Of a stretch of 24,199 bases of DNA, positions 1 to 11,542 are shown one piece after another. The stretch lies in the IMG/VR virus record IMGVR_UViG_3300000288_000064; one strand, 5' to 3'. The DNA comes from a virus (taxonomy: Duplodnaviria > Heunggongvirae > Uroviricota > Caudoviricetes). Both the position numbers and the translations under genes were made by a program. Position 1 is the first letter of the stretch, and each line of letters opens with the position of its first letter. The notes beneath the pieces were generated by a model. That model ran no database searches and was not told where the DNA came from. It saw nothing but the letters and a program-made list of their open reading frames with translations.

Positions 1-82
1 AATCGATACTGGAAAAAACTCTAACTCGGTGGCCAGTTTTTGTTGACCACTTCATGCTACCACAGAGTGGTTCGGTGAATCG

Positions 83-286
83 ATGTTGATTGCGATGGAA
101 GATGATCGTTATCCAGGCTGCCCTGTTTTTGCCTGTGTTGATTTGCCAGAAGGCGCGGTACTTGAAGACGACAAAGAAGAATGCTCGTCTGATGGCGAAC
201 TTGTCATTACTGGAATCGTTGATGGTAAGCCGGAATACTCTCGTATTGAGGTAAATAACGGCCGCATCCGTTTGATCCCTGCGTAA
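83..286 (+). CDS. hypothetical small acidic protein (67 aa)
   Basis: ATG-initiated ORF with protein-like, acidic composition; the overlapping minus-strand ORF (109..441) is Ser/Pro-rich low complexity. No recognisable motif. Confidence 0.3.
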   Translation: MLIAMEDDRYPGCPVFACVDLPEGAVLEDDKEECSSDGELVITGIVDGKPEYSRIEVNNGRIRLIPA

Positions 287-347
287 CGCATTACAGCAGC
301 TCTTGTGCTTACCAGGGGCTGCGATAATGCGCAAACCAAAGCTGCCT

Positions 348-377
348 CATTAACTCCAGCTCGCTGTGGAGTTAATG
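348..377. repeat. perfect 11-bp inverted repeat (cattaactcca / tggagttaatg) with 8-nt loop; candidate terminator or operator
   Basis: Read directly: 348..358 is the exact reverse complement of 367..377; a T-run (386..391) follows after an 8-nt spacer. Lies between ORF 83..286 and the ParB cassette. Confidence 0.3.
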
Positions 378-520
378 CTGGTGGCTTTTTTATTACTGGA
401 AGGTGGGCGACCGCCGTCAGTTGCGACCTGACGACAGTCATTCATACCCACAGGGTGCCGTGGATACAAACCGAGGCCCACTTGCTTGCACAAGCGAGGG
501 GATTTTAGCGGATAAACGGC

Positions 521-1144
521 ATGACAAAACATCTTAATGTGGTTTCTTTACCACTTTCTGTGTTGATTGGTTATGAAAAGAACGCTCGCACACACTCCGT
601 GGAGCAGGTAGATCAGATTATTGCCAGCATACAGGAGTACGGATGGACTAATCCGATCCTGATAGACGAGAACAACGTTGTAATTGCTGGTCATGGTCGA
701 ATTGCTGCGGCCACTCAGTTGGGGATGGATGATGTTCCCTGCATTGTTCTGGCTGGGCTAACGGAGAATCAGAAGAAGGCATATCGTCTGGCCGACAACC
801 GTATTCCGCTGAATGCTGGTTGGGATGAAGAGTTGTTAAGCGCGGAGCTTGCAGATCTTGCGGCCGATGATTTTGCTCTGGACTCAATTGGTTTTACTCA
901 GCGCGAACTGGATAACTTATTGAGTGCGGCGGTCTACGATGACACAGAGGGTATGGATATCCCATTTGAGAAGGATGAGGCCAAATCAGGCGTAAAAGTT
1001 CAGTACCTGTCATTTGGAGGTCATAAAATCCCGGCAACGGATGAGGAAGCGGATCGTTTTGACTGCGCGGTGTCTCGTTATGTTGATGATAATGGCAGCT
1101 ATATCGGATTTGTATCCGCATTGCTGGCTGGGGAGGTGTGCTGA
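521..1144 (+). CDS. ParB-like N-terminal domain protein (ParB/sulfiredoxin fold), copy 1
   Basis: N-terminal region (YEKNARTHSVEQVDQIIASIQEYGWTNPILID...IAGHGRIAAA) matches the ParB-N box with GxGR motif that often precedes phage DNA methylases; about 100-aa acidic C-terminal extension. Stop overlaps the next start. Confidence 0.8.
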   Translation: MTKHLNVVSLPLSVLIGYEKNARTHSVEQVDQIIASIQEYGWTNPILIDENNVVIAGHGRIAAATQLGMDDVPCIVLAGLTENQKKAYRLADNRIPLNAGWDEELLSAELADLAADDFALDSIGFTQRELDNLLSAAVYDDTEGMDIPFEKDEAKSGVKVQYLSFGGHKIPATDEEADRFDCAVSRYVDDNGSYIGFVSALLAGEVC

Positions 1145-2517
1145 TGCTTCACCTCAATTACGACATAACGCACCTACGCGGCGCGGAATATAACCCGCGT
1201 TTTATCGGTGAGGATGATCTTGCGAGGCTGGCGGAAAGCGTCAGGGAGCTGGGGCTTGTGAAGCCATTGATAGTGCGCGGCGATTTGCTGGTGGCGGGAC
1301 ACCAAAGGACGAAGGCGCTACGTAAGTTGGGAATAACGCGTGCTGCGGTGTATGTGTTGCCCTGTGAAACGACGGTATACGACGAAGTACGGTTTAACCA
1401 ACTGCATAACGGAACGGATTTTGATAGCGGAGATGAGCGTTGCAGGGTGTCCGGTCTGGAAGATAAGCATGGTTTTGTTCAGGTATCGGCAAGCCAGATC
1501 TCAGGCAATATGCGCGCGAAAATGGCATATGTTCGAAAGAACATAGCGGAACTGGTTATCAAGTATGGTCCGTGGGGTGGTTGTGTTGCTACTCAGTCTG
1601 GTGAGGTTATTCACTGTGCTCAGTATGCATTAGCAGCGAAAATGACGCGCACACCGCTAACGGTGTTTGTGATCCCTGATGTTGAGAAGGAAAAATACCA
1701 AAGTTATCTGAATAAAACTTATGGTGTATTTGAGTATTCTCATCTGGAGAAAACAACATACATCCAGACGTATGCGCAGCTTATGCGGTTGCGTAATGGT
1801 GGCAGCCTGAAATCAAATCTGTATGAGTCGTTGATCCTCCCGATCGTTGCCAAGACGCCAAGAGGAATTGATTTTGGTTCGGGGCAGGGAGACTACGCGC
1901 GAATGCTCAGGGCAAAGGGATATAACCTGCATGATCTTGAGCTTTTTCGCCGTAAGGGCGCTGGAAACACTCTGGATAGGGCTGCAACAAACCGAATGAT
2001 TGATACGCTGGTGGACGACTTAAAAACGCGAGGGCGTTACGACTACGTGATTTGCGATAGCGTTTTGAACTCGGTCGATAGTGTCGAGGCTGAATGGTCC
2101 GTTCTGACGGTTCTGAAAGGCCTGTGTAAAGCTGGTGGGTCAATATTCTTTTCTGGTCGTAGCCGTGGAGAGCTGGAAACAGTCCTGAAGCAAACACAAG
2201 CGGCGAGTTCCAAAAGCCGGCTTTATTTTATTGATCATAACGGTTTTACCGCGTTGTACCGGAAGGGGCACTGGTTTTACCAGAAGTTTCACTCTGATGA
2301 TGAAGTGAAGCAGTTGTGTCGTGTACATGGTTTCAGGATTAAGCGGTCAATATTCAACTGTAATAGCTGGTATTTGCACGTCATTAACGATGATTCCCTT
2401 AGTTGGGCGAGTCTGGAGAAAGCTGTTCGTTTTGAGTTTGAGTTGCCGTTGCCTGGTGGTTCAACAATCGGACGATCTGATGATGTGCTGGCGGCTTTCC
2501 GGCCGTTGATTAAGTAG
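1144..2517 (+). CDS. fusion protein: ParB-like N-terminal domain + class I SAM-dependent methyltransferase-like domain
   Basis: N-terminus has a ParB-N box (LVKPLIVRGDLLVAGHQRTKAL). C-terminal half carries Rossmann-fold MTase motif I (GIDFGSGQGDY, about 1864..1893) and a post-II-like motif (YDYVICDSVL, about 2038..2067). Start chosen as ATG 1144 (GGGAGG 7 nt upstream, TGATG overlap); in-frame GTG at 1138 is the alternative. Confidence 0.75.
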   Translation: MLHLNYDITHLRGAEYNPRFIGEDDLARLAESVRELGLVKPLIVRGDLLVAGHQRTKALRKLGITRAAVYVLPCETTVYDEVRFNQLHNGTDFDSGDERCRVSGLEDKHGFVQVSASQISGNMRAKMAYVRKNIAELVIKYGPWGGCVATQSGEVIHCAQYALAAKMTRTPLTVFVIPDVEKEKYQSYLNKTYGVFEYSHLEKTTYIQTYAQLMRLRNGGSLKSNLYESLILPIVAKTPRGIDFGSGQGDYARMLRAKGYNLHDLELFRRKGAGNTLDRAATNRMIDTLVDDLKTRGRYDYVICDSVLNSVDSVEAEWSVLTVLKGLCKAGGSIFFSGRSRGELETVLKQTQAASSKSRLYFIDHNGFTALYRKGHWFYQKFHSDDEVKQLCRVHGFRIKRSIFNCNSWYLHVINDDSLSWASLEKAVRFEFELPLPGGSTIGRSDDVLAAFRPLIK

Positions 2518-2533
2518 TGTGTAGGAGGCGCTG

Positions 2534-3253
2534 GTGGCTGACAGAATTGAGATAAAGATGGATTTTTCTTCTCAGGATATTCAACGACAACTCCAGCGCC
2601 TTGAAGAACGCGAATTGCCGTTCGCAATGGCGCTTGCGGCAACCAGAACGGCAAAGGCTTCTCAGGCTGCGATTAAGAATGAAATTAATCGGGTATTTGA
2701 CAGGCCCACGCCGTGGATTCAGAACTCTACTTACGTTTTGGCCGCAAAGAAGAGTGATCCTACAGCCATTGTGTATGCTCGTGAATGGGGAGGAACGCCA
2801 GCCCCTGTAACGTTGACTCCGCAAATCGAAGGTGGCCAACGACAGTACAAACGCTCAGAAGGGGCGCTAAGGGCTGGTGGATATTTGCCTAACGGCTGGC
2901 AGCTTGCTCCTGGTCCCGGCGCAAAGCTGGACAAATACGGGAATATTTCGCGGGGGCAATTACAGCAGGTCTTATCTGGCCTAAGAGTTCAGCGAGATGC
3001 GCATCAAAATCGCCGTCAGGGCAAGCCTACGGAGTTTTTTGTTGTTCGACCTGGTACAAGTAACCCGCTTCAACCAGGCGTCTGGCAGCGCGTTGGGCGG
3101 CGTCCTACGTTGATCCTTACGTTTATCCAGCAACCTAACTATTCGCAGCGTCTTGATTGGCATGGCGTGGCGCTGCGTGCTGGTGAGGATGCGTTTGCTG
3201 ATGAAGTCACAAAGGCTATTGATGACATTCTTTCTAAGACCTTCTCTCGTTAA
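2534..3253 (+). CDS. hypothetical protein (239 aa), third gene of the ParB/MTase cassette
   Basis: GTG start with a perfect AGGAGG 5 nt upstream, 16 nt after the previous stop; GC-rich coding composition; Gly/Pro/Arg/Gln-rich with no motif I can recognise. Confidence 0.6.
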   Translation: MADRIEIKMDFSSQDIQRQLQRLEERELPFAMALAATRTAKASQAAIKNEINRVFDRPTPWIQNSTYVLAAKKSDPTAIVYAREWGGTPAPVTLTPQIEGGQRQYKRSEGALRAGGYLPNGWQLAPGPGAKLDKYGNISRGQLQQVLSGLRVQRDAHQNRRQGKPTEFFVVRPGTSNPLQPGVWQRVGRRPTLILTFIQQPNYSQRLDWHGVALRAGEDAFADEVTKAIDDILSKTFSR

Positions 3254-3444
3254 TCATCGTGTGGTTGATGGTGTTGTTATGCAGAGTGTATTCACTGTGT
3301 TCTGTAGCGTCGCTCGCTGGCTGTCTGTGGGGGAGCACGAGCATCGTTTCATCGTCCGGCAGAATTGGGTCCTTCTGGCCAAAAGCGTTGGATGCGGGTC
3401 ATTCGAACCCCGATATTCGGCTAGCTAAACGTGAAAAAAGTTAG

Positions 3445-3809
3445 GTTAAAAGTTGCGGTAAAAGAAATTTACTCATCTCATTGAAAAATATCGGGAAAAC
3501 GTGATTTTTTCTGTATTTGTGCTGGTAAAAAGAAAGTGGAAAATTTTCTTTTAGATCATCAAGATACGCGCAGATCTTTAACCAATGTGATGTTGTTCTG
3601 ATAAAAATCGTTATAAATCATGCAAATACATCCAATCTTTTAACCAAAACACCATCGCAAGATCCTTTTTACTTATAAAAACTTAATAAAATCAGATAAT
3701 TATGCTGGTTTGTGTGATTTTTCATGAGTAAAAAGATCGTCATTTTTCTCTTTTAGTATCAATAAGTTAAACAGTTTTCTTTAACCTGTTGTGTTATGGC
3801 GGTTAAAAA
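3445..3809. promoter_or_regulatory. AT-rich intergenic spacer, probable promoter/regulatory region for the packaging-morphogenesis operon
   Basis: The only long non-coding gap among + strand genes; several TATAAA-like and TTGAAA/TTGATA-like hexamers, but no single promoter could be pinned by eye. Confidence 0.35.
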
Positions 3810-4400
3810 ATGGCTCTAAAAATCGAATATTTACCAGTCGGTAAGTTGCTCAGATATGCCAAAAATTCACGGACTCATTCAGATGAGCAAGTTGAACAGT
3901 TGGTGAACAGTATCCGTGAGTTCGGTTTCACTAATCCTGTGCTGATCGATGAAAAGAATGAACTGATTGCGGGGCATGGGCGGCTTGCAGCAGCCGAAAT
4001 TCTGGAAATGGATAAAGTTCCGGCGATTCGGTTGAGTAACCTTTCTGAAAAACAGAAGAAGGCTTACAGGATTGCAGATAACAAGCTGGCCTTAAATGCT
4101 GGCTGGGATATGCAGCTTCTGGCCGAAGAAGTCAAAGAGTTAATGGATGATGATTTTGATATTGATCTGCTTGGGTTTAATGATGCAGAGCTTGACGAAA
4201 TGTTAAGCGATGAACAGCCGCAGGAAGAAGACGATAATTCTTCCCCTGTTGTTCAAATTAAGTACCTGGCTATTGATAAAGAACGTATTCCCGCGACGGA
4301 TATGGAAATTGCATTGTTGCTGGATGTTTATCGTCAGTACCACGACGCGCATGAAACGCATGAGGGATTTGTTCAGTATCTTGCTAATGGTTGCAAGTAA
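3810..4400 (+). CDS. ParB-like N-terminal domain protein, copy 2 (paralog of 521..1144)
   Basis: Collinear similarity to copy 1 over the whole length (YAKNSRTHSDEQVEQLVNSIREFGFTNPVLID...IAGHGRLAAA...QKKAYRIADNKLALNAGWD...IPATD). Stop overlaps the small terminase start. Confidence 0.8.
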   Translation: MALKIEYLPVGKLLRYAKNSRTHSDEQVEQLVNSIREFGFTNPVLIDEKNELIAGHGRLAAAEILEMDKVPAIRLSNLSEKQKKAYRIADNKLALNAGWDMQLLAEEVKELMDDDFDIDLLGFNDAELDEMLSDEQPQEEDDNSSPVVQIKYLAIDKERIPATDMEIALLLDVYRQYHDAHETHEGFVQYLANGCK

Positions 4401-4951
4401 TGGCCATCGTCAGTAAGTCAGAGTTTGCCCGCCGGAAAGGTATTTCTCCGGCAATGGTTACGAAGCTCTGTCGTTCCGGTCGCATTCCAGTGCTGAAAAG
4501 CGGCAAGCTGGATTTTGATAAAGCCAGTGCGGCTTATGAAGCGAGCCGACAGGTTGGTCGTGAGGTATCTGCTGAAAATGGAAAAAGAGGGCATGGGATA
4601 TCTTCGGAACAACCAGAGTTACCCGCTGATGATGCCGGATTAGCTGGTGGTACTTCCGGTGTTGCGGTGCAATTCAACAAGGCTAAGACCGCAGAAAAAA
4701 TTTATCAGGCAAAGCTGAAACGCCTTGAATTTGAAGAAAAGGAAGGCTCTCTCATCGCTAAAGATGCGGTCAGGGATGATGCATTTCTGGCAGCTAATGA
4801 ATTGCGTAGCCGCTTATTTAGTATTGCTCCAAGAGCAGCTCCCCGTTGTGAAGGCAAAACAGCCAGGGAGATCGAGCGCATTATTGAAGACGAGATTAAT
4901 TTTGCGCTTCAGGCGCTCCAGGAATCCCGATTTATTAAGCAGGAAGAATAA
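4400..4951 (+). CDS. terminase small subunit (Nu1-like architecture)
   Basis: Sits immediately upstream of the large terminase; N-terminal helix-turn-helix-like segment (SKSEFARRKGISPAMVTKLCRSGRIPV) and central coiled-coil-like region, as in lambda Nu1. ATG at 4400; the ORF track opens at an upstream TTG (4391). Confidence 0.6.
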   Translation: MAIVSKSEFARRKGISPAMVTKLCRSGRIPVLKSGKLDFDKASAAYEASRQVGREVSAENGKRGHGISSEQPELPADDAGLAGGTSGVAVQFNKAKTAEKIYQAKLKRLEFEEKEGSLIAKDAVRDDAFLAANELRSRLFSIAPRAAPRCEGKTAREIERIIEDEINFALQALQESRFIKQEE

Positions 4952-4956
4952 ACCTC

Positions 4957-6813
4957 ATGGGCGAAACAGTATGGAGCACCGCTTTTTTCCGTGCGCTTCG
5001 CCCTAAATCACGGCTAACTGTTTCCGAATGGGCTGATAAGTATCGTCATGTAGCGCCGGGAACGTCTCCAGAGCCAGGGCCGTGGCGTACAAGCCGAGTG
5101 CCATATTTGCGTGAACCAATGGATGTTATTGGTGACGCTGATACAGAAACAGTAGTGATGCAATGTAGCTCGCAAATTGGTAAATCCGAATTACAGCTAA
5201 ATGTTATGGGTTACTTTGCAGATCAGGAGCCATCTCCTCAGTTGATGATTTATCCAACGGTAGAGGCGGCTGAGGCTTTTTCAAAAGAGCGTATTGATCC
5301 GACGTTCAAATATTCCCCTGGTTTGAAACACAAGCTGCATGAAGGGAAAGAGGGGCGCGGTGCAGCCAAAAAGTCCAGCACGACTATACGTATGAAGCAT
5401 TACGCTGGTGGATATATAGCACTTGTTGGTGCTAATTCCCCAGCAGGTCTTGCATCCAGGCCAATTCGAATACTGTTAGCTGATGAGATTGATCGTTACG
5501 GTGTGACGCAGGAGGGCGACCCACTAAAACTAGGTATTCAGCGTACTACCAACTTTCATAATCGTAAGAAAGTTTTTGTTTCTACTCCTGTTTTGGAGGA
5601 AACAAGCAAAATCCACAAGTGGTTTAAGCTCTCCGATCAGCGTTACTACCATGTTCCTTGCCCATGTTGTGGCACCATGCAGGTGATGAAATGGTCGCAA
5701 GTCAGATGGGATAAGAGCGATTCAGGTGAGGCGTTACCGGAAACGGCCAGATATGAGTGCTGTGAGTGCGGCGGGATTATGCGCGGATCTGGTAAACCAG
5801 ACGTTGATTGGTTGGCGAAGGGGGTATGGATAGCTGAACATACTGGAGTTAAAGGTATTGTTGGTTTTCATATTAACAGTCTTTACTCCCCGTGGGTTGC
5901 ATTGTCAGAGCTGGTTGAAGAATTTACGGAAGCAACCAGAAACCGCGATAAAAATGGATTAATGGAGTTTATTAACCTTAAGCTGGGTGAGCCATGGAAA
6001 GAGGATGCTAAAGACGATATCGATCCTGAATACTTGTTGCAACGCAGAATAAGGTTTGAAGAGTTTTTACCAGATGATGTTTTATTGTTAAGTGCTGGTG
6101 TTGACGTACAGGACACGTATTTAGTTTGTGAATTGGTCGGTTGGGGAAAAGGTAAGGAGTCATGGGGGATAGAATATAAAATATTCCCAGGTGATCCCGC
6201 ACAAGATGTTGTCTGGAAACAACTTGATGAATACTTACTCCGTAGCTGGTCATTCCGTGACGGTCGAAAATTACAGATTTCTTCCGTTTGTATTGACTCT
6301 GGTGGGCATTTTACGACAGAGGTATATCGCTTTACTAAGCCGAGAGAATCAAGGCGAATATACTCTATCAGGGGGCGTGGTGGGGTAGGTTTACCATTTA
6401 TAGGAAAGCCAAGTAATAATAACCGTGTGGGTGCTATGTTGTTTAATTTGGGGGTTGATGATGGTAAAGGGACCATCATGGCAAGAATTAAACTACATGA
6501 TCCTGGTCCTGGTTATATGCATTTCCCATTAGATTCTGACAGAGGATATGATACCGAATACTTTAAAGGATTATTATCAGAGAAAAAAATATTTGAATAT
6601 AAAAATGGGCAGACAAAAGAAAAGTGGGTGAAAGTCTACGAGCGTAACGAGCCTCTTGATTGCCGTAACTATGCAACTGCCGCGATGGAAATTCTGAACC
6701 CTAATTTTAACTGGCTTGCCGAACAGGAAATGCGAGGTAATGTGTATGTGCAGAACTCGTCAGGTATACGTAGAAGACGCCGTAGAGTTATAAGTAAAGG
6801 CGTAACCATATAG
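4957..6813 (+). CDS. terminase large subunit, GpA family (lambda A-like)
   Basis: 618 aa; N-terminal SEWADKYRHV segment and C-terminal LDCRNYATAAMEIL segment align by eye with lambda gpA (VEWADANYY; ALDCFVYALAAL). Confidence 0.9.
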   Translation: MGETVWSTAFFRALRPKSRLTVSEWADKYRHVAPGTSPEPGPWRTSRVPYLREPMDVIGDADTETVVMQCSSQIGKSELQLNVMGYFADQEPSPQLMIYPTVEAAEAFSKERIDPTFKYSPGLKHKLHEGKEGRGAAKKSSTTIRMKHYAGGYIALVGANSPAGLASRPIRILLADEIDRYGVTQEGDPLKLGIQRTTNFHNRKKVFVSTPVLEETSKIHKWFKLSDQRYYHVPCPCCGTMQVMKWSQVRWDKSDSGEALPETARYECCECGGIMRGSGKPDVDWLAKGVWIAEHTGVKGIVGFHINSLYSPWVALSELVEEFTEATRNRDKNGLMEFINLKLGEPWKEDAKDDIDPEYLLQRRIRFEEFLPDDVLLLSAGVDVQDTYLVCELVGWGKGKESWGIEYKIFPGDPAQDVVWKQLDEYLLRSWSFRDGRKLQISSVCIDSGGHFTTEVYRFTKPRESRRIYSIRGRGGVGLPFIGKPSNNNRVGAMLFNLGVDDGKGTIMARIKLHDPGPGYMHFPLDSDRGYDTEYFKGLLSEKKIFEYKNGQTKEKWVKVYERNEPLDCRNYATAAMEILNPNFNWLAEQEMRGNVYVQNSSGIRRRRRRVISKGVTI

Positions 6814-6824
6814 AGGAAATATAA

Positions 6825-7064
6825 ATGAACAATGAAGCATTTTCTCTGACTGAAGCCAGAGAGATGTTATCTGTCTGGCGGGAAGCATATCGCGCTATTG
6901 CTATTGGCGGTCAGTCATATAAATTTGGTACGCGGCAGTTAACTCGTGCGGATTTATCAGAAGTCAGAAAAGAGATGGATTACTGGCGTAATGAAGTAGA
7001 AAGATTATCAGCAGGTGTACGCCGAGGCCCACGAATTAAACGAGTGGTGATAAGAGATTTATGA
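6825..7064 (+). CDS. gpW-like head-tail joining (head completion) protein
   Basis: 79 aa between large terminase and portal; C-terminal VRRGPR and central DLSEVRKEM resemble lambda gpW (RRRGP; DLKKYIAELE). GAGGA RBS about 7 nt upstream. Confidence 0.65.
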   Translation: MNNEAFSLTEAREMLSVWREAYRAIAIGGQSYKFGTRQLTRADLSEVRKEMDYWRNEVERLSAGVRRGPRIKRVVIRDL

Positions 7065-10105: not shown

Positions 10106-11149
10106 ATGCCGAATATTGATATTTTTGAACGACGTACGATGCTTGAGCCTGTTATTCAGAATTTCAAGGCTCGTCGTTTTCTTCTTCGTACCTTTTTTCC
10201 TGGTGTTCAGACCTTTAATACAAAGAAAGTTGATCTGGATTTTGTTCGCGGTGGCCGTACTATGGCTCCGTTTGTTGGTAAAGGTTTTGGCTCAAAAACC
10301 GTTGAGCGACGCGGCTTTGTAACGAGAACTCTGGAGCCACCACTTGTTGCACCTGATTTGGTAACAACAGCCGAGCTGCTTTTAAACAGGCTTCCGGGTG
10401 AGAATATTTACAACGCAAAATCGCCAGCAGAACGAGCCGCCGAGCAATTAGGTAAAGATTTGCTTGAGCTTGATGAAATGGTTAACCGCCGTGAAGAATG
10501 GATGTGTGCACAAGTCTTGTTTACGGGGCAGGTTGATATTGTTGGTGAAGGAGTGGATGACACAGTTTATTTTTGGCCTGAAGAGGAAGGAGATAAACCA
10601 TATCTTGAACTGACAGGTGATGATTTATGGAGTGCAGCAAAATCAGATCCGTTAGTCAATGTTCGCAACTGGAAACGTCGGGTATCACTAACTTCAGGTT
10701 TTACACCTCGTGTTGCCGTAATGGGCGCAAAAGTTGTTGATGCCTTCGTTAAAAATGAAGCAGTAACTAAATATCTTGATAATCGCCGAAAAGAGCTTGG
10801 GTATATTGAGCCTAAAGAGTTAGAAGAAGGCGTAACTCATTATGGCAATCTTGAAGGTGTCGATTTTTATGGTTACGACGAACTTATTCGCAATGATAAA
10901 ACAGGAAAACCTGAACCATTAGTACCGGAAGATAAGATCCTCTTTGGCTCTCCTGGTCGAGGAACGATGCTGTATGGTGCTGTAGAGCTTGTAGATGACG
11001 CCGAAAAGACTCTAACGATTGTTGAGTCACCACGAGTTCCAGACACTTGGGTAACTCGTAAGCCGGCTGGCCGTTATGTTGCCATGAAGTCATCTCCACT
11101 GCCTAATCCTGGTGTGGCTGATGCCTATCTGGTGGCTAAGGTGGTTTAA
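10106..11149 (+). CDS. major capsid protein (lambda E family)
   Basis: 347 aa; N-terminal FLLRTFFPG and LNRLPGEN segments align by eye with lambda gpE (FLRLFFRES; LRRLPDED); AAGAGG RBS. Confidence 0.9.
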   Translation: MPNIDIFERRTMLEPVIQNFKARRFLLRTFFPGVQTFNTKKVDLDFVRGGRTMAPFVGKGFGSKTVERRGFVTRTLEPPLVAPDLVTTAELLLNRLPGENIYNAKSPAERAAEQLGKDLLELDEMVNRREEWMCAQVLFTGQVDIVGEGVDDTVYFWPEEEGDKPYLELTGDDLWSAAKSDPLVNVRNWKRRVSLTSGFTPRVAVMGAKVVDAFVKNEAVTKYLDNRRKELGYIEPKELEEGVTHYGNLEGVDFYGYDELIRNDKTGKPEPLVPEDKILFGSPGRGTMLYGAVELVDDAEKTLTIVESPRVPDTWVTRKPAGRYVAMKSSPLPNPGVADAYLVAKVV

Positions 11150-11542
11150 ATGGCCAGACTGATTAAAAACATTGATACGATAAGCCACGGCTCGCTAAAA
11201 GCGGGCCGTTTGCTTAATGGGCTAATGGATAACTCCAGAATTGCCGAACTGATTGCGTCAGGACATGCTATTGCCACCGAAGAGGATGGTGATTTGGCAT
11301 CGGCTGGGGGCTATGATGCTGCTAAGTTAGCTTTTGAGCATGGATACGCATCTGCTGTTAATGATGCTGTGGACGCGGGGTTGATTACGCGAACGGAGGC
11401 GGGTAGCTGTGTATTCGAGGTTGAGTTTGAGGATGATGGCGGCAATGAGGAAATGGTTGCTGATGATTCATCTGAATCTGTAGCTACTTCTGATACCAGT
11501 AATGCGAAAAAATCAACGCAAAAAAAAGGTAATAAGAAGTAA
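11150..11542 (+). CDS. hypothetical protein (130 aa), positionally equivalent to lambda FI
   Basis: Coupled to the capsid stop; acidic C-terminal segment followed by a Lys-rich tail (KKSTQKKGNKK). No recognisable motif. Confidence 0.5.
   Translation: MARLIKNIDTISHGSLKAGRLLNGLMDNSRIAELIASGHAIATEEDGDLASAGGYDAAKLAFEHGYASAVNDAVDAGLITRTEAGSCVFEVEFEDDGGNEEMVADDSSESVATSDTSNAKKSTQKKGNKK

Follow-up and report, generated by a model that had tools for sequence, protein, structure and literature searches.

Two ancient ParB-like paralogues, each coupled to a different neighbor, on either side of a probable cos site in a phage-plasmid

Why should one phage genome carry two related standalone ParB-like genes, each leading directly into a different partner gene? 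The question is raised by a 24,199-nucleotide stretch of Caudoviricetes DNA (IMG/VR record IMGVR_UViG_3300000288_000064; this whole stretch is referred to here as the window), the first 5 kb of which is 99.3% identical to a 48,488-bp plasmid of E. coli ATCC 25922 and is matched, in the same comparison, by about 65 similar plasmids of ~47–50 kb. With its RepA and ParA, its lysis cassette, head genes like those of lambda, and a contractile tail like that of P2, the ATCC 25922 plasmid is a phage-plasmid of a ~48-kb type; this type of element forms infectious phage, namely the Yersinia isolates vB_YpM_39, 41, and 44, whose genomes are 99% identical to the first 5 kb of the window. The two genes in question both lie on the plus strand, where ParB1 (521..1144) encodes a 207-aa standalone protein of the ParB/Srx fold and ParB2 (3810..4400) a 196-aa protein of the same kind, and both open reading frames (ORFs) are present, with the peptides that were quoted for them, as in a preliminary description of this DNA. 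As that description also had it, their downstream partners differ: ParB1 precedes a 457-aa fusion (1144..2517, plus strand) of a ParB-N domain, a second α/β domain, and a class I S-adenosylmethionine (SAM) methyltransferase of the Methyltransf_23 type, while ParB2 precedes TerS, the small terminase subunit (4400..4951, plus strand; phrog_57, E 7e-42), which begins with a helix-turn-helix-like segment (Cox-like, residues 5–39). The stop codon of ParB1 overlaps the start codon of the fusion (TGATG), the stop codon of ParB2 overlaps that of TerS (TAATG), and each ParB is translationally coupled to its downstream neighbor. As set out in the following, ParB1 and ParB2 are ancient paralogues, each tied to a different neighbor.

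The two proteins are similar over their entire length. BLASTP aligns them collinearly from residues 3–5 to residues 194–204, with 95 identities over 201 positions (47%, E 8e-62), distributed as 58% identity in the ParB fold, 52% in the helical region, 14% in the linker, and 33% in the C-terminal domain formed by the last ~50 residues. A hidden Markov model (HMM) built from ParB1-type C-terminal domains alone retrieves the ParB2-type C-terminal domains at 29–53 bits, compared to a best score of 9.1 bits among 1400 shuffled control sequences, and the C-terminal similarity is thus genuine. The earlier claim of collinearity over the ParB-N box and the C-terminal extension is borne out by the full-length identity and by these HMM scores, and the concern that the resemblance might be confined to the ParB-N box does not apply, with the helices and the C-terminal domain contributing as indicated above. 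The difference in guanine-plus-cytosine (GC) content that had been described between the genes (about 48% versus 43%) was reproduced (48.1% and 43.1%, respectively), but, because the window itself spans 34–53%, this gap says little alone and adds little as evidence of origin.

Two origins had been offered for the two-copy state, namely, an old duplication with subfunctionalization, or the import of a second copy together with the cassette that carries it. A recent tandem-like duplication within the phage-plasmid would fit the collinearity and 47% identity of the proteins, the location of the genes on the same strand and 2.7 kb apart, and the fact that the copies are always found together in the E. 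coli plasmids. However, in a neighbor-joining tree (59 sequences, 202 columns, 200 bootstraps), the orthologues of ParB1 and of ParB2 group with 98% and 93% bootstrap support, respectively (99% for ParB2 plus the copy of the metagenomic relative L169), while ParB1 and ParB2 of one genome appear as exclusive sisters in 0 of 200 bootstraps. Furthermore, the within-genome identity of ParB1 and ParB2 is steady at 44–47% in the E. coli, Salmonella, and Serratia lineages, compared to 59–80% between orthologues, which argues for an old split without gene conversion, and places this split before the divergence of the E. coli, Salmonella, and Serratia versions. When also taking into account that there are phages with a ParB1-type gene and the fusion but without ParB2, and others with a ParB2-type gene but without the cassette, and that two close relatives lack ParB1 (L086 and L088, see below), a recent duplication becomes highly improbable, and we rejected it on the grounds of phylogeny and gene presence or absence. 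Of the two origins, it is thus the import of the cassette, upon an ancient paralogy, that is supported and that we favor, and not a recent duplication within the genome.

On the packaging side of the locus, the final gene ahead of cos is Hyp239 (2534..3253, plus strand; 239 aa, phrog_1924, which carries the label "minor tail protein"), which is separated from ParB2 by an AT-rich gap of 556 bp, and TerS is followed by TerL (4957..6813, plus strand), a large terminase of the lambda gpA type with ATPase and nuclease domains (PF05876, E 7e-76; PF20454, E 1e-84). Among complete E. coli genomes, the cassette (counted as 521..3253) is found in 71 and ParB2 with TerS in 72, nearly all on plasmids, and both copies are always present in the close E. 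coli relatives of the window. The six-gene order is also kept in a Salmonella-type element (80% identity for ParB1 and 79% for ParB2), in a Serratia-type contig from a metagenome assembly (59% and 65%), and in L169. In contrast, L086 and L088, which are 97% and 92% identical, respectively, to the Salmonella-type element L004 from Hyp239 onward, have ParB2 without either ParB1 or the fusion, and the upstream DNA of L086 is unrelated, with minus-strand YfbU and DUF2441 genes right after the lysis cassette. Hyp239 is retained in both, and thus goes with the packaging module and not with the cassette. In the Vibrio phages X29, phi 2, and XM1, a ParB-like gene comes first and is followed by a TerS that is 42% identical, with no Methyltransf_23 fusion, such that the linkage of ParB2 to TerS and TerL is seen in E. 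coli, Salmonella, Serratia, L169, L170, and these three Vibrio phages. Relatives with the terminase-proximal copy alone, the existence of which the preliminary description left to be checked, therefore do occur (L086, L088, X29, and phi 2), and the constant co-occurrence of the two copies, which that description had named as counter-evidence, holds only among near-identical E. coli plasmids.

The cassette side shows the reciprocal pattern. A ParB1-type gene directly followed by the fusion is found in lambdoid prophages of Klebsiella and Pantoea and in a metagenome contig, where the packaging genes are of the unrelated Terminase_2/Terminase_6 types, as well as in a Bradyrhizobium prophage remnant and a metagenomic gpA phage. 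Scanning IMG/VR with an alignment of the fusion gave 69 loci, 63 of which had upstream sequence available; in all 63, a same-strand upstream ORF matches the ParB-N and/or the C-terminal-domain HMM (both in 46 of the 63), and a further ParB-like gene before TerS is present only in the five loci of the phage-plasmid lineage. ParB1 and the fusion are thus a portable two-gene cassette located just upstream of the terminase genes in many unrelated phages. We note that, in one group of loci from a single IMG/VR sample (L234..L240 and L242, sample 3300045988), in which the fusion is 33% identical, two successive ORFs of ~230–250 aa with the family C-terminal domain stand ahead of the fusion, not one. 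Separately, four single ORFs of 320–435 aa (P0241, P0243, P0264, and P0377) contain two tandem ParB-like modules of the phrog_620-type family, which may hint, in "Rosetta-stone" fashion, at ParB–ParB pairing, or may alternatively be gene-calling artifacts.

Both ParB genes are under purifying selection. The ratio of nonsynonymous to synonymous substitution rates (dN/dS) is 0.056 for ParB1 (E. coli versus Salmonella, between which synonymous sites are saturated) and 0.081 for ParB2 (between two Salmonella-type elements), and the E. coli versus Salmonella comparison of ParB2 gives proportions of nonsynonymous and synonymous differences (pN and pS) of 0.12 and 0.84. This selection bears on the idea that ParB2 has no function and is what is left of a ParB-N6/N4 DNA methyltransferase gene upstream of TerS after the loss of its catalytic domain. 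Such an origin would be in line with the many prophages in which TerS and a gpA-type TerL are immediately preceded by a ParB-N6_N4 methyltransferase gene, or by two of them (for example, L021, L025, L026, L034, L038, L115, L128, and L159), and with a profile alignment of the standalone family to these fusions that runs into the first methyltransferase β-hairpin. However, the strength of purifying selection on ParB2 (dN/dS of about 0.08, and the pN and pS values above), the conservation of its length and C-terminal domain from Vibrio to Enterobacterales, and its translational coupling to TerS all stand against decay, and we give a functionless remnant next to no credence: an origin of ParB2 by truncation is possible, while a loss of function is unsupported.

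Two further observations concern this relationship. The hairpins of the C-terminal domains (981..1040 and 4254..4313; pattern V.YL.F...IP.T) align by profile with the first N6_N4 methyltransferase hairpin (DVW.LG.HRL.CGD) of the ParB-methyltransferase fusions, an alignment that hints that the standalone ParB family may have been derived by truncation of a ParB-N6/N4 methyltransferase fusion. In addition, many prophages of Acidobacteria and Alphaproteobacteria carry two tandem paralogous ParB-N6/N4 methyltransferase genes (~500 and ~430 aa; for example, L025, L026, L034, L038, L041, L046, L115, and L128), mostly directly upstream of TerS and/or a gpA-type TerL, such that two ParB-N paralogues next to a terminase are a wider theme.

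What kind of proteins, then, are these paralogues? Both match phrog_620 ("ParB-like partition protein", 217 positions), ParB1 over its full length with E 1e-73 (residues 1–198 on positions 3–196), and ParB2 with E 5e-75 (residues 1–195 on positions 5–210). ParB2 scores 33.7 bits against PF02195 (ParB_N), above the cut-off of 26.3 bits, and ParB1 scores 22.9 bits, below it; both proteins belong to the ParB/Srx superfamily, ParB1 through its 47% identity to ParB2 and its phrog_620 match. An AlphaFold2 (AF2) model of ParB2, with a predicted local distance difference test (pLDDT) score of 83, comprises a ParB fold (residues 1–95), three short helices (101–132), a disordered linker (137–147), and a small C-terminal domain of a β-hairpin and two helices (151–192). 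The model is that of ParB2, and we assume a similar build for ParB1, the sequence of which aligns with it collinearly throughout. In Foldseek searches, the best Protein Data Bank (PDB) matches of the model, which extend over its first ~140 residues, are Noc, ParB, PadC, KorB, and Srx (sulfiredoxin), at E 1e-6 and with a root-mean-square deviation of 3.0 over 139 columns for Noc (7nfu). The Box I Arg, the GHGR motif (equivalent to GERR and including the final Box II Arg), and the Box III Asp-Asn (DN) are invariant in both clades, the invariance of the GHGR Arg being read from alignments of 20 and 36 sequences. A sequence search of the PDB found no close solved relative of the ParB proteins, the matches of a fold search of BFVD were to unannotated phage ParB/Srx proteins only, and scans with Pfam, NCBIfam, and PADLOC found no family for either the ParB C-terminal domain or Hyp239.

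Taking the fold at face value, one or both proteins might be thought to be centromere-binding partition ParBs that segregate the plasmid prophage: RepA and ParA are encoded by this plasmid prophage, public records label the proteins "chromosome (plasmid) partitioning protein", and there is a weak match to the partition ParB model TIGR00180. This match, however, reaches only 30.5 and 40.1 bits for the two ParBs, compared to a cut-off of 58.45 bits, and no helix-turn-helix (HTH) DNA-binding domain was found in the ParB2 model by AF2 and Foldseek. Furthermore, no LG(K/R)GL-like ParA-binding motif (as defined in PMC12704722) is visible at the N-terminus of either ParB1 or ParB2, ParA lies ~13 kb from the ParB genes with its own small downstream partner gene, and the family is also present beside terminases in integrated prophages and linear Vibrio phage genomes. 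A partition function is hence scarcely credible, and it was ruled out on the absence of an HTH, the TIGR00180 scores under the cut-off, and the location of ParA elsewhere.

The partner of ParB1 is itself a ParB-fold protein. The fusion matches phrog_5475 (E 9e-265), the PHROG label of which is function unknown, as well as PF13489 (31.5 bits), PF02195 (24.3 bits), and PF08242, and its AF2 model (pLDDT 92.9, predicted template modeling score 0.88) resolves into a ParB-N domain (residues 1–90), a second α/β domain (96–190), and a class I methyltransferase domain (235–457). Its nearest solved folds are small-molecule and tRNA methyltransferases (3d2l, 3h2b, Trm9, glycine N-methyltransferase, and METTL6), with no DNA methyltransferase among them, and the fusion has neither a PF01555 match nor a DPPY/NPPY-type motif in its sequence, as would be expected of a DNA amino-methyltransferase. 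As an observation on the middle domain (residues 96–190, window 1429..1713), its order of strands and helices is as in the ParB-N fold; hhalign aligns it in register with the ParB fold (IHCAQYALAA against IAGHGRLAAA) at a weak probability of 6%, a BLAST comparison of this domain with the ParB fold gave nothing, and the domain may be a degenerate second ParB fold.

In the gap ahead of ParB2, two Yersinia phage records have their breaks at window positions 3396/3397 and 3408/3409, 12 nt apart and bracketing GGTCATTCGAAC, which is the pattern expected of filled-in 12-nt cohesive ends. The block GGGTCATTCG[A/T]ACCCCG is the sole invariant stretch of the gap in five divergent relatives, and the 17-mer GGGTCATTCGAACCCCG (3396..3412), which contains the palindrome TTCGAA and encloses the 12-nt stretch, is exact in six loci. 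From the two record termini and this block, we infer a cosN at 3397..3408, between ParB1 and ParB2, which would make ParB1, the fusion, and Hyp239 the last genes of the linear genome and ParB2 the first. ParB2 starts 402 bp past this putative cosN, and lambda has cosB and Nu1 at roughly the same distance after its cosN. Among the features of lambda-type packaging, the gpA domains are clear, and the 12-nt end is read from the record termini and the invariant block. On this reading, ParB2 is the first gene of a cos packaging module consisting of the putative cosN, cosB-like repeats, ParB2, TerS, and a gpA-type TerL.

The cosB-like region is AT-rich (3441..3810) and contains degenerate 9-mers (CTTTTAACC/TCTTTAACC and their complements) at 3444(−), 3524(−), 3575(+), 3637(+), 3778(+), and 3801(−), positions that align with sites in relatives. 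In the Serratia relative L003, the interval from cosN to ParB2 (10900..11387) holds 10 copies of TTGTTAACC (nine exact, one with a single mismatch), three on the minus strand followed by seven on the plus strand and mostly 47–75 bp apart; over the whole L003 locus, there are 16 matches compared to 3.8 expected, a number reached in 0 of 200 shuffles. Because a significant array is found in the Serratia relative only, we make no claim of ParB2 binding sites. A scan of 1..5000 for sigma-70 promoters and terminators gave nothing above chance, and no signal within the gap. With regard to the same region, the viable Yersinia phage vB_YpM_44 is without 88 bp of the gap (window 3536..3623), so that this stretch of the cosB-like region is not essential; in L088, a TnpB gene (IS605 OrfB/Cas12f-like; 5747..6916) sits between Hyp239 and the cos region.

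Taken as a whole, we consider it somewhat better than an even chance that the two genes are ancient paralogues belonging to two modules that became joined around cos and that their products are nucleoside triphosphate (NTP)-gated accessory subunits. The phage-plasmid lineage would have brought the two modules together, one on either side of cos, and each ParB would be a nucleotide-gated, dimerizing accessory subunit of the neighbor to which it is coupled, either activating this neighbor or positioning it on DNA. ParB1 would pair with the methyltransferase fusion through ParB-N/ParB-N engagement, with which the tandem ParB-like ORFs described above are consistent, and ParB2 would act with the terminase/cos complex. 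An accessory function for ParB1 and ParB2 is likely by analogy with a phage ParB that is composed of a nucleotide-binding and a C-terminal domain, without a DNA-binding domain, and that activates its cognate 5mYOX thymine dioxygenase on double-stranded DNA (PMC13229309). In addition, a 2025 survey describes ParB-CTPase/Methyltransf_23 fusions as enriched in phages, and ParB folds as binding CTP, ATP, or GTP (PMC12704722).

The main rival, which we regard as doubtful, is a nuclease or nickase activity of the two proteins. In this case, ParB2 would serve as an accessory endonuclease in cos cleavage or packaging, comparable to the HNH proteins located by cos in HK97-like phages, and ParB1 would introduce nicks for the methyltransferase, or else target the DNA of the host or of rivals. 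The invariant His of the GHGR motif resembles motifs of ParB-like nucleases. The same residues, however, equally fit nucleotide binding, and the gpA-type TerL has a nuclease domain of its own. As to precedent, the location of ParB2 between cos and TerS is that of the HNH accessory nucleases (PMC3592412), the ParB domain of the B. cereus ParB-methylase Bce_0392 nicks DNA, and Osa is an ATPase/DNase (both PMC5512222).

Several points weigh against the accessory-subunit explanation, or parts of it. In lambda, the gpA-type terminase works without a ParB-like factor, and the terminase is the sole enzyme with which ParB2 could be partnered. The methyltransferase fold of the fusion is nearest to small-molecule and tRNA enzymes and lacks a DPPY-type motif, such that its substrate may or may not be DNA. 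The tree is a neighbor-joining tree on about 200 columns, in which ParB1 groups with the lambdoid cassette ParBs at 54% bootstrap. In the window, the gap repeats (CTTTTAACC, TCTTTWAACC) are not enriched over shuffles, and the cosB-like repeats are candidates only, for binding by TerS and by ParB2 with equal likelihood. Finally, mutants in the NTP-binding residues of the 5mYOX-associated ParB still activate (PMC13229309), which leaves nucleotide gating unproven.

A more far-reaching version would be a single nucleotide-gated system made up of the three ParB-fold proteins encoded around cos (ParB1, the fusion, and ParB2), in which noncanonical methylation is coupled to packaging. Here, ParB2 and TerS would be loaded together at the cosB-like repeats, and ParB-N/ParB-N engagement would recruit the ParB1-methyltransferase complex to the DNA under packaging, with DNA, a nucleotide, or a packaging protein as the target of methylation. 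The ParB switch would then serve a new purpose, but we consider this version very unlikely.

Upstream of the cassette, window 1..55 (~55 bases) is the end of an insertion sequence (IS) of the IS3 family (IS911-like) known in the Shigella phages Sf6 and SfII and the Salmonella phage SEN22, and homology to the ATCC 25922 plasmid begins only at window 52–55; in the source of the window, an IS has therefore inserted into the 136-aa gene that lies upstream of ParB1. Between the lysis genes and the cassette, the ATCC 25922 plasmid additionally has a gene for an MT-A70 methyltransferase and a tRNA, and a gene of the Acb2/Tad1-hairpin family (an anti-CBASS/anti-Thoeris sponge family) sits one or two genes upstream of ParB1 in L003 (7230..7508) and L169 (490..774), such that this slot looks like a region of accessory or antidefense cargo. 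For the proteins of the locus itself, PADLOC, Pfam, and NCBIfam indicated no defense role.

ParB folds outside chromosome segregation are a current open topic, and the 2025 survey catalogues phage ParB-methyltransferase fusions without assigning functions to them (PMC12704722). ParB1, ParB2, and the fusion belong to known but uncharacterized phage families, and our search of the literature on ParB-like proteins with a role at the small terminase or in packaging returned no study of the phrog_620-type family. In the literature searched, both the near-obligatory pairing of a standalone ParB with a ParB-methyltransferase and the coexistence of this pair with a terminase-linked paralogue across cos appear to be undescribed. 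The locus thus adds a consistently paired cassette of a standalone ParB and a ParB-methyltransferase, plus a paralogue tied to the cos/terminase module. Since E. coli ATCC 25922, a reference strain that can be cultured, has both paralogues, the partner specificity of the ParB paralogues and the role of the ParB fold in packaging or modification are directly testable by genetics. Should the ParBs prove to be no more than accessory nucleases, or not to be needed at all, this would be an ordinary finding.

It remains to compare these proteins with known systems. They share a predicted ParB-CTPase fold with the canonical CTP-dependent ParB clamps (ParB/Spo0J, Noc, KorB, and PadC), as well as the conserved Box I Arg, final Box II Arg, and Box III Asn, and differ from them in having no HTH domain, no adjacent ParA, and TIGR00180 scores below the cut-off, and in the replacement of the Box II Glu by an invariant His (GHGR for GERR). 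The HNH accessory endonucleases of the HK97 gp74 type likewise are encoded by a small accessory gene at the cos–terminase junction (PMC3592412), but the fold of ParB2 is unrelated and lacks an HNH motif, and the terminase here, which is of the lambda gpA type, includes a nuclease domain itself. The phrog_498/PADLOC MTase_II ParB-N6_N4 fusions (e.g., Bce_0392) are homologous over the first ~150 residues (E 1e-50, 47% identity in the profile alignment) and favor the same position as ParB1 and ParB2, just upstream of the terminase genes; the latter, however, are without a methyltransferase domain and have a C-terminal domain of ~50 residues in its place. The protein encoded by 1144..2517 belongs to the class of ParB-CTPase/Methyltransf_23 fusions (PF02195 and PF13489) surveyed in PNAS in 2025, the available part of which mentions neither an upstream standalone ParB partner nor a terminase-adjacent position (PMC12704722). 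The closest likeness in architecture, as opposed to sequence comparison, is to the 5mYOX-associated ParB activators (e.g., ParB176; PNAS 2026, PMC13229309), which are also small standalone phage ParBs with an N-terminal nucleotide-binding fold, a short helical or unstructured connector, a C-terminal domain, and no obvious DNA-binding domain, and which adjoin the cognate modifying enzyme for which they are specific, much as ParB1 is paired with the fusion in 63 of 63 loci. The difference lies in the partner, which is not a TET/JBP dioxygenase but a ParB-N/class I SAM methyltransferase in the case of ParB1 and a terminase in the case of ParB2, and in the fact that the partner enzyme of ParB1 itself has a ParB-N domain.

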